A stretch of 4,288 bases of DNA from a virus (IMGVR_UViG_2531839200_000015); one strand, 5' to 3'; counted from the stretch's first letter, positions 1 to 4,288 are shown. Numbers and translations are program-made. The notes: generated from the letters alone by a model not told the origin.

Positions 1-370
1 TCATCGGGGTAAAACGGTTTATGACGTGGCTTCCGGCGACGCGTTATTTATTTCTGAACTCGGTCCGTTACCGGAAAATGTTACCTGGTTGTCGCCGGAT
101 GGAGAGTGTCAGAAGTGGAACGGCACATCCTGGGCGAAAGATGCAGAAGCAGAAAAACTGTTTCGGGTACGGGAGGCAGAAGAAACAAAAAACAGCCTGA
201 TGCAGGTAGCCAGTGAGCATATTGCGCCACTTCAGGATGCCGTAGATTTGGATATTGCGACGGAGGAAGAGGCATCGTTACTGGCTGCATGGAAGACATA
301 TCGGGTATTGTTGAATCGTGTTGATACAACAGTAGCAGCGGATGTTGAGTGGCCAGTCGCCCCACAATAA
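1..370 (+). CDS. Phage tail fiber assembly protein (Tfa/gpG family), C-terminal part; 5'-partial, gene begins upstream of the window
   Basis: The frame is open from base 2 ([29 protein letters not shown]...) to the TAA at 368-370. The GTG at 26 reported as start by the ORF track is internal. The C-terminal motif [27 protein letters not shown]....WP is the conserved tail-fiber-assembly chaperone domain found in lambdoid Tfa and P2 gpG proteins (recalled, not searched). GC is about 48%. Confidence 0.88.
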
Positions 371-376
371 AAAGAA

Positions 377-406
377 AAAGCCATCGACAGAAATATCGAT
401 GGCTTT
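377..406 (-). terminator. Rho-independent terminator hairpin between convergent genes, strongest for the minus-strand acetyltransferase
   Basis: Perfect 11-bp stem, AAAGCCATCGA (377-387) pairing with TCGATGGCTTT (396-406), around an 8-nt loop CAGAAATA. On the minus strand the hairpin is followed by UUCUUUUUAUU (complement of 366-376), a classic U-tract. On the plus strand it is followed by AUGUACUCUAUUU, a weaker tract. It sits between the tfa stop (368-370) and the acetyltransferase stop (414-416). Confidence 0.7.
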
Positions 407-413
407 ATGTACT

Positions 414-986
414 CTATTTATACAATACAACACCACTCTTTTTAGTTATATATGTGCAGTTTGATGGTATATCTTTATTTATAAAAGACATTGCACCTAT
501 TTTTACATTATCCCCAATTTTACGTGATAATCCAATGATGCAACAATTAGCTCCGATATCAACGTTACTACCAATTTTTACTCTTGAACTAGGCATATCA
601 CCATCTATCTGTCCAATGGTAGTATTCTGTCGTAATACCAGATTTTCACCCGCATCAACAGCAAAATGAACAACAATTCCAGCATGATGGGGAATTGTCA
701 ACCCTTTTCCAATATTTGCGCCCAATCCTATTTCACAACCAAACTTGTTAATTATTTTACTGTTTAACTTTTTGGCTGCTTTCTTATGTAATTTATTACC
801 ATTAATATACATTTCGTTAGCCAACCGCCACCAGAAAAGGAAATTCCGGTTACGCTGCTTTTTCTCTCTTAAAAGCCTCCAGATATCCATACGTTTCCGC
901 CGAATTACTTCATGTTTCCAGAAGTTTTTTAAATTAGTAGAGTTTCCAAATAAAACAAAGTGAATTGCCATTAAGTAAGATAGCAC
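414..986 (-). CDS. Hexapeptide-repeat (left-handed beta-helix) acetyltransferase, serine acetyltransferase CysE/WcaB-like; AT-rich cargo gene
   Basis: The ORF-track frame is 414..1019. The protein carries tandem hexapeptide repeats (GLGANIGKGLTIPHHAGIVV..., IGQIDGDMP, KIGSNVDIGANCCIIG, KIGDNVKIGAMSFI) preceded by a CysE-like helical region (FLFWWRLANEMY...KFGCEIG). I prefer the GTG at 986-984 as start because AAGGAG (998-993, minus sense) lies 6 nt upstream of it. The track start GTG at 1019 and the ATG at 971 have no Shine-Dalgarno and remain alternatives. GC is about 27-30%, far below the flanks. Confidence 0.82.
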   Translation of the reverse strand: MLSYLMAIHFVLFGNSTNLKNFWKHEVIRRKRMDIWRLLREKKQRNRNFLFWWRLANEMYINGNKLHKKAAKKLNSKIINKFGCEIGLGANIGKGLTIPHHAGIVVHFAVDAGENLVLRQNTTIGQIDGDMPSSRVKIGSNVDIGANCCIIGLSRKIGDNVKIGAMSFINKDIPSNCTYITKKSGVVLYK

Positions 987-1037
987 GATAATCTCCTTAA
1001 TTATTATTTCAGACCACACATGTTATAAGGTTAAGAG

Positions 1038-1066
1038 ATTATAAAATCCTGTTATTTGTTATTCAA
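1038..1066 (-). promoter_or_regulatory. Predicted sigma70 promoter for the acetyltransferase gene
   Basis: Minus-strand reading: TTGAAT (-35, complement of 1061-1066), a 17-nt spacer AACAAATAACAGGATTT, then TATAAT (-10, complement of 1038-1043, perfect consensus). An A/T-rich UP-like tract (AAAATTGTTTT) sits upstream. The predicted transcript start near 1031 leaves a leader of about 45 nt before the SD and GTG at 986. Confidence 0.55.
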
Positions 1067-1099
1067 AAACAATTTTCTGAGAAGGACATACAACAGCAA

Positions 1100-1132
1100 G
1101 TCGCCAGTCACCTTCATCAGGAAATTGGCGAC
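1100..1132 (-). other. Inverted repeat (7-bp stem, 19-nt loop) just downstream of the gpU stop; possible weak terminator or recombination scar
   Basis: GTCGCCA (1100-1106) pairs with TGGCGAC (1126-1132). It is flanked by direct copies of GACATAC (1085-1091 and 1130-1136). On the minus strand the stem is followed by the moderately U-rich CUUGCUGUUGUAUGU. Confidence 0.25.
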
Positions 1133-1142
1133 ATACGTTAAA

Positions 1143-1631
1143 TCAGAGCAGCCCCTTAACTGAGCTGGCCGCGCTATTAAGGGATGATGTCACCTTATCT
1201 TTGAAGCCGGACAGCATATCGCTGAACGATGAGGATTGCAGGCGCTCCCGCAAATCCTCATCACAGCGTTCAAGAGTCAGTGAAAATTCTATCTTTTTCG
1301 CCTTACCGTAGCGATCAAACTCGGAGCGGGTCGTATTCGTTCCGGTCAGGACATACATGCCGTAAATCTGCCCGACGCCATCAATCAAAGGCCAAGGACG
1401 TCCTGTATATGCCTGCGTGGTCAACAACGACAGCGACACTTCGCCACCAGTAATCTCAGGATAAAGAACACCAGAAAGAACGATGCGATCATCACCTGCA
1501 CCGATATACTGCCAGCTTGCTGAACGGTTAACGCGTTCATTTTTCACATGTCGCCAGCTTTTGTTTTGCTGTAACTGCTGATGCGGCAACGTGCGCAGCT
1601 CAAAAACAAACATGCCGTAGATCATCATCAT
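1143..1631 (-). CDS. Phage tail protein, P2 gpU family
   Basis: The ORF-track frame is 1143..1637 (MAMMMIYGMFVFELRTLPHQQLQ...WRH...NSRVNRSA..GAGDD...LSGVLYPEITGG...WPLIDG.G.IYGMYV). The N-terminal MMM-hydrophobic pattern and conserved blocks match P2 gpU as I recall it (MMMVLGLFVF...). It sits directly downstream of the tape measure gene, as in P2 T-U order. The start is probably the second ATG (1631-1629), since GAGGAG (1645-1640, overlapping the gpT stop) is 8 nt upstream of it and only 2 nt upstream of the first ATG at 1637. Confidence 0.8.
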   Translation of the reverse strand: MMMIYGMFVFELRTLPHQQLQQNKSWRHVKNERVNRSASWQYIGAGDDRIVLSGVLYPEITGGEVSLSLLTTQAYTGRPWPLIDGVGQIYGMYVLTGTNTTRSEFDRYGKAKKIEFSLTLERCDEDLRERLQSSSFSDMLSGFKDKVTSSLNSAASSVKGLL

Positions 1632-1643
1632 GGCCATGACTCC

Positions 1644-3954
1644 TCAATCTTTATCGTAAAAACTGCCACGCCTGGCACGGGCGCGCCGTTCCATTTCTGC
1701 CCTGACCATTTCGCCGACCAGTTTCGCCAGTTCGCGGGGATTCTGCGTAACAACGTTATGCAGATGAACATGAATTTCACCGCCAAATCCGGAGGCAACA
1801 GGCTCCCGGTTACGGGAAGTTGCAGGAACTGATGCCACTGGCGATCGTATGGCCTCCACCACCGGGCGGGAGCTGGCCGCAACAACAGGGACCAGCGCCG
1901 GAGGCAGCGGAGCCGGGACCACGGGTGTGATATTAATTGCGGGGGCAGGCTTACTGACCTGCGCAATCTTCCGCTCCTGCCACTCCCCACGAACAGCAAG
2001 TGCGCGGGGCAGGTTCTTAAAGACAATATCGCCGGGGCCAATGCGTTTTTTTGTCTCATCAACCAGCTTACCTGTGTTATCAGCAATTTTGCTGAGTCTG
2101 CGTAGCGTGCCGGTATTGCTGTCTGTGAGAGGTTTGTTGTCTTTGGGTTTATCATCTCCGGTGCCATTGCTATTTCCCGCAGACTTCGGCGGATTGATTT
2201 TCGCAATGTCTCCCTGAAACAGAGCAACCTTGTCCTGAAGAATGGCCGCACGTTGTGCGTCTTCGATTTTCTTGCGCGCCCTTTCCGCTTCATCCGGAAG
2301 CACACCGAGTTTTTCAAGTATCCACGCCAGCGTATCCAGCAACATTTTTGCAGGCGTCAGAACAAGCTGTAACGCACCACCAAGAACGTTACCGAATACC
2401 TCGCCAGCACTGGTACATTTATCCAGCGTTTCCTTGCTGGACTCCATCGGTGACAGCAGCGATTTAAACCAGTTAAACACCTGGCTGATCCCGCTTCCGA
2501 TTACGTCAAAAACAGGGCCAAACCGTTCAAAGGTGTCGCGCAACGGGGTCAGCCTTTCCATAATCCCGCTGAACACCCCGGCAAAGAAAGCCCTGATAGG
2601 ATCCCAGTATTTCCAGATAAGAACGGCAGCTCCGGCAAGCGCAGCCACGATAAGACCAACCGGACTGAACAACGCCCCGATAACGCCTCCCAGTAAAGAA
2701 ACGGAACCCGTCACCATTCCCCATAGCGCAGGTAACACCCTGACGACATTCATTGACCGGGTAAGAATGTCAAAACCAAGACGCAGGGTGGCCAGCTTCC
2801 CGTAAAGCACCCCAATAACCAGCGACAACGAGCCAATCGTTGCAGTCATTGCCAGCAACGCACCGCCTGCTATCAGTAGCTGGCGCGTCAGTACCGGATG
2901 GGCCTGCGCCAGCGAGGTGATTTTTTCAAGCACCCGCGTGAGCCACTGCGTGACAGAACGCAGCGGACCGTCAACCAGATCACTGATGCGAATACGAAGA
3001 CCTTCCCATGCGCTGTCGAGATTTTTCAGGTCCCCATCAAGATTATCAGCCATTACTTTTGCGACGCGATCGGCCTCTCCCCTTGCCCCCTGCAATTCTC
3101 TGGTCAGTTTTTGCAGCTCTCCTGAACCAGCCGCCGCAACAAGCGTCTGCAAACCAACGAACGCCTCTTCTCCGGCGATGTCCTTGAAGAAGGAGACCTG
3201 GTCCACCTGTCCGTATTTTTGTGTCGCCTTATAGAGATCAAGCAGCACATCCTCCATCGGGCGCATTTTGCCTCTGGCGTCAGCAACTGACACCCCCAGC
3301 TCTTTCAGTGCATCAGCCGCAGCTTTTGGCGGTGATGCAAGGCGGGACAGACTTGCGCGCATGGCCGTGCCAGCATCGCTTCCGCGAAGACCATTATTGG
3401 CAAGCATCCCGGCCATGGCCGCCGCTTCTTCAAGACTGATACCAAGTTTTGCGGCAACCGGACCGGTATACTTCATGGTTTCGCCCAGCGCGCGTAAATC
3501 AGTATTGGTCCGGGTAAATGCTGCTGTCAGCGTATCGCCCACCCGGTCCATTTGATCGGCTGTCAGGTTGAACTGTGTGAGGATATTGGAGCCTATATCA
3601 GCCGTCTCGCCGAGTTCGACGCCACCTGCCAGCGCCATATTAAGAACACCGGGCAATGCGGCCTGAATGGCCTGCGGAGTAAAACCAGCCATTGCCAGAA
3701 AGCTCTGCCCACTGGCGGCATCACTCGCAGTAAACTGTGTTTCAGCAAGTTTTAACGCCTGCTCACGCAGCGCCTTAAACTGCGGGCTGTTTTTGTCGAT
3801 TCGCGTCAGTGCCTGAACGCGGGACATCTCTTTGCCGAACCCGATCGCAGGCTGCAAAAAACGCCCGGCAGCATAGCCGCCCGCCGCTGCCGCACCAATT
3901 GCCAGCGCACCACCTGTTTTCAGTTTTCCCGCGGTTTCCTGCGCGTGCGAATAC
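1644..3954 (-). CDS. Phage tail tape measure protein (P2 gpT-like, TP901-type domain), 5' end interrupted by IS insertion; probably a pseudogene or gene fragment
   Basis: A 737-codon ORF (track 1644..3857, with TTG as first possible start) ends in TGA at 1646-1644. It has an N-proximal tape-measure domain (...LGISLEEAAAMAGMLANNGLRGSDAGTAMRASLSRL...), a long central hydrophobic Gly/Ala/Leu-rich segment and a Pro/Val/Ala-rich C-terminal region, all typical of myovirus tape measure proteins. My hand translation shows the frame stays open upstream of 3857, with no ATG/GTG/TTG, through the IS boundary at 3954/3955 and about 30 codons into the IS until a TGA at 4046-4044. So the native start is missing from this side of the IS. 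Confidence 0.88.
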
Positions 3955-4288
3955 TGAACCGCCCCGGAAATCCTGGAGACTAAACTCCCTGAGAAAGAGG
4001 TAAACAGGATGACTAAAAATACTCGTTTTTCCCCCGAGGTCCGTCAACGGGCAGTTCGTATGGTTCTGGAAAGTCAGGATGAATATGACTCACAGTGGGC
4101 GGCAATTTGTTCCATTGCCCCAAAGATTGGCTGTACGCCGGAGACTCTGCGTGTCTGGGTTCGCCAGCATGAGCGGGATACCGGGGGCGGTGATGGTGGG
4201 CTCACCAGCGCTGAACGTCAGCGTCTGAAAGAGCTGGAACGTGAAAATCGTGAACTGCGCCGCAGTAACGATATCCTTCGCCAGGCTT
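3955..4288 (+). mobile_element. IS3-family insertion sequence, left end (IS629/IS1203/IS3411-like); continues beyond the window
   Basis: The terminal sequence TGAACCGCCCCGGAAATCCTGGAGACTAAACTCCCTGAGAAAGAGGTAAACAGG starts at 3955 with the TG dinucleotide typical of IS3-family inverted repeats. It is followed by the OrfA ATG at 4008 with an AAGAGG Shine-Dalgarno (3995-4000). The left-end sequence matches IS629 as I recall it; this was not verified by search. Confidence 0.85.
4008..4288 (+). CDS. IS3-family transposase OrfA (helix-turn-helix and leucine-zipper N-terminal protein), 3'-partial
   Basis: The ATG at 4008 opens [93 protein letters not shown], which runs to the window edge without a stop. 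This is the characteristic IS3-family OrfA: an HTH region followed by a heptad Leu/Arg/Glu-rich zipper. It is absent from the ORF track because it is not closed within the window. Confidence 0.9.

Follow-up and report, generated by a model that had tools for sequence, protein, structure and literature searches.

In P2 (Peduovirus P2), the tail fibre assembly gene G, the block from FI to U, D and ogr are collinear, with U overlapping D, and only fun(Z), located between G and FI, is reversed. The arrangement differs in P88 (Xuanwuvirus P88), a contractile-tailed, plaque-forming phage with a burst size of about 65 that was induced from E. coli K88 (PMC5285337). In P88, H and the tail fibre assembly gene tfa lie on the plus strand, a second tfa and a second fibre end (tfa' and fibre end') on the minus strand, the DNA invertase gene on the plus strand, U, T, E', E, FII and FI on the minus strand, and D on the plus strand; 500465-2 has the same order. 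Here, we analyzed a stretch of 4,288 nucleotides from the virus IMGVR_UViG_2531839200_000015, referred to below as the window, in which a tfa gene on the plus strand faces the tail genes U and T on the minus strand. The window is very probably the right-hand tail region of a P88-like prophage of the P2 family (Peduoviridae) in E. coli O157:H7, and its convergent layout the norm of that lineage.

Genes were identified from the listing of open reading frames (ORFs) together with Pfam matches; since the statement at issue is one of gene order, no chance model is applicable to it. The features of the window are as follows.

1–370 (ORF 2–370), plus strand: 3' part of tfa, the analogue of P2 gpG, with 122 C-terminal codons and the stop; the full-length gene has 192 codons and starts 208 bp left of the window (Pfam Caudo_TAP, 1.7e-40; phrog_105, 9e-57; RefSeq coding sequence at 19792–20370 of L001, strain PV15-279).
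377–406, no strand assigned: hairpin located where the tfa and acetyltransferase genes converge.
414–1019, minus strand: hexapeptide acetyltransferase; the longest ORF has 201 amino acids, and the RefSeq start at 986 gives 190 amino acids.
1020–1136, no strand assigned: spacer that, according to local blastn, belongs with the cargo and not with the phage backbone.
1038–1066, minus strand: upstream of the acetyltransferase gene, a match of the sigma-70 promoter type (TTGAAT-17-TATAAT).
1143–1637, minus strand: tail protein gpU (Pfam Phage_P2_GpU, 1.5e-38), encoded at the end of the inverted FI-FII-E-E'-T-U operon.
1644–3954, minus strand: tape measure gene T, with 770 of its roughly 935 codons remaining (Pfam PhageMin_Tail, 9e-55).
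3955–4288, plus strand: left end of the insertion sequence (IS) IS1203/IS629 of the IS3 family, with orfA from 4009 running off the window (HTH_Tnp_1, 1e-12; RefSeq 'IS3-like element IS1203 family transposase', with a programmed frameshift).

The stop codons of tfa (370) and U (1143) are 772 bp apart. This agrees with the preliminary description of this DNA, in which tfa was said to face U and T at a distance of about 0.8 kb and the layout was recognized as unlike that of P2, whose record has G, FI, FII, E, T, U and D on one strand. The GC content is 32–38% in the acetyltransferase region vs. 50–60% in the flanks. The 5' end of T has been removed by IS1203 at 3954/3955, and RefSeq annotates the gene as 'incomplete; missing N-terminus'; full-length T measures 2808 nt in P88 and in the prophage of strain NCCP 13983. 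Of IS1203, only the left 334 bp are inside the window, and its insertion in T is the only real lesion there.

The window matched E. coli O157:H7 chromosomes at 99.9–100% and lies in a P2-like prophage that is flanked by yecA and the tRNA-Leu/Cys/Gly cluster and is named Sp13 in strain Sakai (Asadulghani et al., PMC2669165). In the O157:H7 strain PV15-279, which matches exactly, a full P2-family head, lysis and baseplate module, from the portal gene to I and H, is located upstream of tfa on the plus strand, while the genes from E to FI and the 5' part of D are absent and IS1203 is inserted in T. The copy in 2017C-4109 (O157, L002) has no IS in T, and its minus-strand genes U-T-E'-E-FII-FI are followed by D on the plus strand. 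The near-intact copy of NCCP 13983 (L009) carries H and tfa on the plus strand, the acetyltransferase gene, U, T, E', E, FII and FI on the minus strand, and D, ogr and hok on the plus strand; the identical order was found in an O111:H8 copy (L008) at another integration site, adjoining ihfA. The full layout is V-W-J-I-H-tfa (plus), a variable slot, U-T-E'-E-FII-FI (minus) and D-ogr (plus). The convergence had been taken to mark a local inversion or deletion joint, a view that must be abandoned, since the flanks and the relatives show a conserved, intact order with a complete tail operon, as seen in NCCP 13983, P88, SEN4/5 and 3LV2017.

IS-linked deletions differ among the O157 strains, as seen on comparing PV15-279 (L001 24009–26846) with 2017C-4109 (L002 26872–29595). 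In the latter strain, the head and baseplate genes are gone, an IS3-family remnant adjoins tfa, and D is broken by an IS30 that is in turn broken by IS1203. The PV15-279 copy was made defective by IS1203 in T together with the loss of E to FI and the 5' part of D.

We compiled a census of 80 IMG/VR loci with a gpU matching that of the window at 99% identity or more, and I, H, the tfa types, the invertase, the acetyltransferase, T, FI and D were mapped in them by tblastn. H and I were on the strand opposite to U at 45 of the 46 informative loci, and D was opposite to FI and U in every case (50 of 50). At the sole exception, L089 (5265–7880), H and I share the strand of U, and an IS66-family element separates the truncated fibre gene H from T, which is truncated as well; this locus is an IS-associated inversion. 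The element was recognized by its matches to TnpB_IS66 (5e-40) and DDE_Tnp_IS66 (4e-103).

The comparison was extended to a phage collection by using tblastn matches of gpU and gpD. U and D were on opposite strands, 5.2–5.9 kb apart, in 45 phage records with a gpU at least 53% identical, including P88, PhiR44_2, 500465-2, 503458, Shae_phiSM, P884B11, 520873, Chuche, Enterobacter phiT5282H, 24 Klebsiella Kp48xx records, 3LV2017, ST16-OXA48phi5.4 and SEN4/5. The inverted layout also occurs in Klebsiella 3LV2017 (gpU 62% identical) and Salmonella SEN5 (53%), and SEN4/5 have been recovered as produced phages (PMC5261728). Relatives of the window prophage are classified as Xuanwuvirus or Gemsvirus. 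U and D were adjacent on one strand, as in P2, in KP12 and Kp4845-2 (gpU 49%), and the Klebsiella phage ST13-OXA48phi12.1 (51%) was likewise collinear; Burkholderia P2-like phages are also reported to be collinear with P2. Among 5426 complete E. coli genomes, 1404 carry a P88-type gpU. Since this gpU type is common, in about a quarter of E. coli genomes, and its sampled relatives are inverted, deviation from the P2 order is no evidence of decay or of hybrid origin, and P2 is not a template for every P2-family prophage. The layout is already present in published phage genomes, so that the finding is an ordinary one, but the contrast with P2 is real. The gene identities, the layout, its conservation, the variability of the cargo and the truncation by the IS are established.

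A further Klebsiella record, CP052639.1 (L093, 8547–11892; filed as plasmid or phage), has a split sheath gene, the 5' fragment of which is still divergent from D, with the 3' part heading the tube-to-U block on the other strand. This represents either a secondary rearrangement or a misassembly.

With regard to transcription, the FI-FII-E-E'-T-U operon is inverted relative to P2 in the P88-like lineage, so that the baseplate/fibre operon and the sheath-to-U operon run toward each other, and D-ogr diverges from FI. The inverted FI-U block may have kept its own late promoter and would then constitute an autonomous late transcription unit. In P88, NCCP 13983, 3LV2017 and SEN5, the sequence preceding FI aligns with the P2 PF region, including its annotated activator site. 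The gap between FI and D spans 153–157 bp and holds one TGT-N12-ACA-type dyad in each case, with 0–1 mismatch, the centre of which is 81.5–88.5 bp from the start codon of FI (P2 PF, 82.5 bp) and 68.5–76.5 bp from that of D. A strict search for TGT-N12-ACA returned no site in the late intergenic regions, those annotated in P2 included; the dyads are seen only with one mismatch allowed and with the annotated activator sites of P2 as a guide. D would probably be driven from the other face of the same dyad, since the latter is symmetric, like the single annotated site that serves the divergent pP and pO promoters of P2, 78.5 bp from one start codon and 95.5 bp from the other. In the 35.8-kb P88 genome (L003), there are just two copies of the extended form, GTTCT-N12-ACAAC, at 14214 in the divergent portal/scaffold gap and at 33253 in the divergent FI/D gap; in NCCP 13983, it was found at 7405 and 26784. 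These are candidate Ogr/B-type activator sites for two putative bidirectional late promoter regions, the FI/D gap looking like a further late promoter that acts in both directions, comparable to pP/pO.

The gap between U and tfa is a hypervariable cargo slot. Within the census, 35 of the 80 loci carry an invertase gene with an opposed second tfa/fibre end, 32 the acetyltransferase gene, 7 about 1.4 kb with split ORFs resembling heptosyltransferases of glycosyltransferase family 9 (GT9), 3 a different fibre gene without tfa, and 1 only 260 bp; at 2 of the 80 loci, nothing was detectable downstream of U. These five slot contents among loci with nearly the same gpU bear out the earlier suggestion that the joint is recombination-prone and collects cargo. 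In local blastn comparisons, homology to P88, 500465-2 and L042 begins at position 1137, 6 bp past the U stop, and homology to L037 at 1088, while homology to the P1-like phage JL22 ends at 985; the 49 bp next to U (1088–1136) are common to the GT9-cargo and acetyltransferase classes. No essential transcript would cross the meeting point of the two operons, and cargo may gather in this slot because the operon ends lie head to head and insertions there would break no essential transcript. Also of some value is the finding of a hypervariable slot at the convergence of two tail operons, which in enterohaemorrhagic E. coli holds an acetyltransferase of polysaccharide type, one that P1-like phage-plasmids have as well.

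At L037 (10592–11676), the slot contains two A+T-rich ORFs, one of which matches glycosyltransferase family 9 (heptosyltransferase; 8e-6); taken together, the pair resembles a split transferase gene of the lipopolysaccharide-core type.

The acetyltransferase of the window is a left-handed beta-helix (hexapeptide) enzyme with NCBIfam matches to EpsC (2.7e-21), CysE (5.5e-17) and WcaB (5.6e-15), a match to serine acetyltransferase structures (1.8e-12), and a match to phrog_2154 (3.5e-87), a phage family with no assigned function. Its scores compare with the curated cut-offs as 62 vs. 211 bits for TIGR01172 (CysE), 76 vs. 150 for EpsC and 55 vs. 196 for WcaB. On these profile matches, the protein is assigned to the hexapeptide-repeat acetyltransferase superfamily and to none of CysE, EpsC or WcaB. 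The RefSeq name 'serine O-acetyltransferase' is unwarranted, as the TIGR01172 equivalog cut-off is missed. A search for defence systems with PADLOC gave no match for the acetyltransferase.

The gene shows the traits of a moron, namely a deviant GC content and presence or absence among near-identical relatives, and is cargo rather than a virion gene. It may have a promoter-like site and a bidirectional terminator of its own. In the terminator scan, the hairpin at 377–406 showed a 13-bp stem with an A-run and a T-run on opposite sides, and its predicted RNA fold reaches -16.1 kcal/mol (z = -4.4), a value that none of 200 shuffles equalled; it is likely a bidirectional intrinsic terminator. The promoter match (1066–1038) agrees with the consensus at 10 of 12 positions, and since such matches are no commoner in the window than in shuffles, it is only by its position that it suggests a putative promoter at 1038–1066.

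The fibre C-terminus, tfa and the acetyltransferase gene are 86–92% identical to those of the P1-like phages JL22 and Ro157c2YLVW. About 33 P1-like plasmids have the acetyltransferase gene; in JL22, it is flanked by U and U' within the C segment, which is under cin control. The junction between the tfa 3' end and the acetyltransferase gene was found in 530 complete E. coli genomes, 495 of which have the full tfa-acetyltransferase-U junction; the acetyltransferase gene is almost always attached to this tfa. A second acetyltransferase allele, with 36–37% protein identity, occupies the same slot at 5 of the 32 loci (L031, L036, L044, L054 and L079), next to a tfa that is 77% identical at four of them, L054 having no detectable tfa.

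Fibre C-terminus, tfa and acetyltransferase gene, a module also present in P1-like phages, would have arrived together. The enzyme probably adds O-acetyl groups to a polysaccharide on the surface of the lysogen, which may be the receptor for the fibre linked to it. A more far-reaching proposal, which we put forward only tentatively and consider unlikely as it stands, is that the slot is dedicated to receptor-related cargo, and that fibre tip, tfa and acetyltransferase gene form a linked cassette moving between P1-like phage-plasmids and P88-like peduoviruses. It is hinted at by the attachment to tfa, the paired second alleles (37% for the acetyltransferase and 77% for tfa) and the GT9 heptosyltransferase-like cargo of the slot. 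Were it true, the acetyltransferase would modify the polysaccharide seen by the co-transferred fibre, resulting in exclusion of sister phages or protection of progeny.

As to how the acetyltransferase class came about, descent from an invertible-segment ancestor resembling JL22, through deletion of the distal half and the invertase gene instead of direct replacement in the slot, has some appeal but seems rather improbable. JL22 carries the arrangement from which such a deletion could start (tfa, acetyltransferase, tfa', fibre', invertase), its copy of the module being 91.6% identical, and P88 backbone homology resumes 6 bp past the U stop, where the invertase class also joins the backbone. Nevertheless, no remnant of tfa', of a second fibre end or of the invertase was detected in 986–1136, none of the 80 P88-like loci has both acetyltransferase and invertase, and the sequence at 1088–1136 that is common with the GT9-cargo class fits cassette replacement better.

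The preliminary description had also proposed a hybrid between a tail-fibre region of lambdoid type and what remains of a P2-type tail. Over its 3' two-thirds, tfa is indeed 88–90% identical to lambdoid tfa genes and to TfaQ/TfaR of K-12 prophages, but the same tfa type is also found in P1-like phages, to which its DNA is closer (91–93% vs. 88–90% to tfa of lambdoid phages). Further, I and the N-terminal part of H (about 290 codons) are 94% identical to P88 and 71% to P2, so the fibre region is no lambdoid graft, and the rest of the prophage is P2-family throughout. No lambdoid structural genes (J, stf, lom etc.) are present beside tfa in the flanks. Unrelated phage families have long been known to exchange fibre C-termini and tfa, as reportedly described by Haggard-Ljungquist et al. 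(1992). Given the P88-like I and H N-terminus, the P2-family prophage, the tfa type shared with P1-like phages and the known exchange of fibres, the mosaic is confined to the exchangeable fibre-tip module, and a lambdoid-P2 fusion is very unlikely.

Equally, there is very little to be said for tfa being part of a currently invertible segment of the Gin/Cin/Pin type, with its orientation relative to U as one of two states, an option that had been raised early on and that describes the sister phages well. The 35 invertase-class relatives have the invertase gene next to U and an opposed second tfa, both orientation states are seen among them (11 vs. 6 for one tfa pair and 9 vs. 3 for another), inverted repeats of 65 nt bound the segment in P88, and the same tfa-acetyltransferase pair resides in the cin-controlled C segment of JL22. 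It does not describe the window. This prophage and all 32 acetyltransferase-class relatives have no invertase gene and one tfa only; no invertase is annotated in the prophage copies, and tblastn with the P88 invertase found none at the acetyltransferase-class loci. The best inverted repeat, of 20 nt at 85%, is of a quality expected about 0.8 times by chance in 7.5 kb (calculated). Moreover, flipping in the invertase class swaps the tfa that follows H and leaves the convergence of the fibre operon and U unchanged. The 20-nt repeat (tfa 5' part and window 1107–1126) was also considered as a relic of an opposed tfa and rejected, being at chance level with no further similarity. Nor is the FI-U block itself a switch, since the search for inverted repeats around the whole block yielded only pairs of 16–25 nt at chance level.

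Finally, that the convergence is a local scar from the decay of this O157 prophage, possibly through IS activity, is hardly credible: the prophage has decayed (IS1203 in T, loss of E to FI and of part of D, other O157 strains lacking head genes) and IS-linked rearrangements do occur here (IS66 in L089, the split sheath gene of CP052639.1), but the tfa-acetyltransferase-U junction recurs in the 495 complete genomes, of several serotypes, at 96–100% identity and at two integration sites, it is found in a prophage with a complete tail operon (NCCP 13983), and plaque-forming phages from at least four genera share the convergent layout.

The assignment of the window to a P88-like lineage with a conserved convergent layout has to be weighed against several points. 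Firstly, our literature search found no paper that states the inverted FI-U layout outright. Secondly, the functional phages that we found belong to the invertase class or have no cargo, and none of them carries the acetyltransferase gene. Thirdly, the acetyltransferase remains below every curated family cut-off. Lastly, the putative late promoter, its bidirectional use and the putative terminator are read from sequence; a one-mismatch dyad is expected about 0.65 times by chance per 157-bp gap (calculated), and since such dyads are frequent by chance, the promoter argument rests on conserved position and on the alignment with P2 PF.

Other genes of these prophages lie outside the window. In the O157 copy, a macro-domain gene of 300 amino acids (Pfam Macro, 8e-19; phrog_2613) is located between H and tfa (L001 18881–19783), about 220–1120 bp left of the window start. 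It was absent from the O111 copy, the NCCP 13983 copy and the P1-like JL22, and was present at the same place in Salmonella SEN5 and at 11 of the 32 acetyltransferase-class IMG/VR loci. A possible esterase near an acetyltransferase cargo is suggestive, yet the two genes occur independently; PADLOC gave only a sub-threshold match of the macro-domain protein to DarG (E = 0.004). A toxin gene of the hok/gef family follows ogr (L001 28675–29267; L009 28016–28608), and ParM-type partition genes follow the replication gene A in these prophages, both being unusual in comparison with P2.

Among known systems, the closest is the P88 group, comprising P88, 500465-2, 503458, 520873, P884B11, PhiR44_2, Chuche and Citrobacter Shae_phiSM, with 87–96% identity in U-T DNA, 96–99% in gpU (99.4% at the protein level for P88) and 94% in the backbone before the fibre tip. 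The comparison with P88 was made by segments, the PV15-279-type copy carrying deletions; the DNA of window positions 1137–3954 is 90.2% identical to P88 and 95.9% to 500465-2. The slot holds a second tfa, a fibre end and a DNA invertase gene in P88 and the acetyltransferase gene in the window, and the window strain, unlike P88, has the macro-domain gene between H and tfa and a prophage made defective by IS1203 and the loss of E to FI. With P2, the window prophage shares the families of H, G/tfa, FI, FII, E, E', T, U, D and ogr and the type of FI activator site; it differs in its inverted FI-U block, with tfa pointing at U and D diverging from FI, and in its gpU, which shows about 46% identity to the gpU of P2-type phages (Wphi, for example). 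In the G segment of Mu, the C segment of P1 (Cin) and the P segment of e14, opposed tfa genes converge next to an invertase gene, as they do in the same slot of the sister phages, whereas the window has neither invertase, second tfa nor crossover-site repeats. The U-tfa slot of P88-like phages corresponds to 'moron position 2', the cargo hot spot after gene G in P2-like phages that holds fun(Z) in P2 (PMC3573123). The cargo most comparable to that of the window is NeaT, likewise encoded by an A+T-rich acyl/acetyltransferase gene that follows tfa (yfdK/G), runs against the fibre operon and is dispensable for the phage (PMC3573123). NeaT, however, is a membrane acyltransferase (Pfam PF01757) of a P2-collinear prophage, whereas the enzyme of the window is a soluble hexapeptide-repeat protein, unrelated to it in sequence and encoded within an inverted layout.

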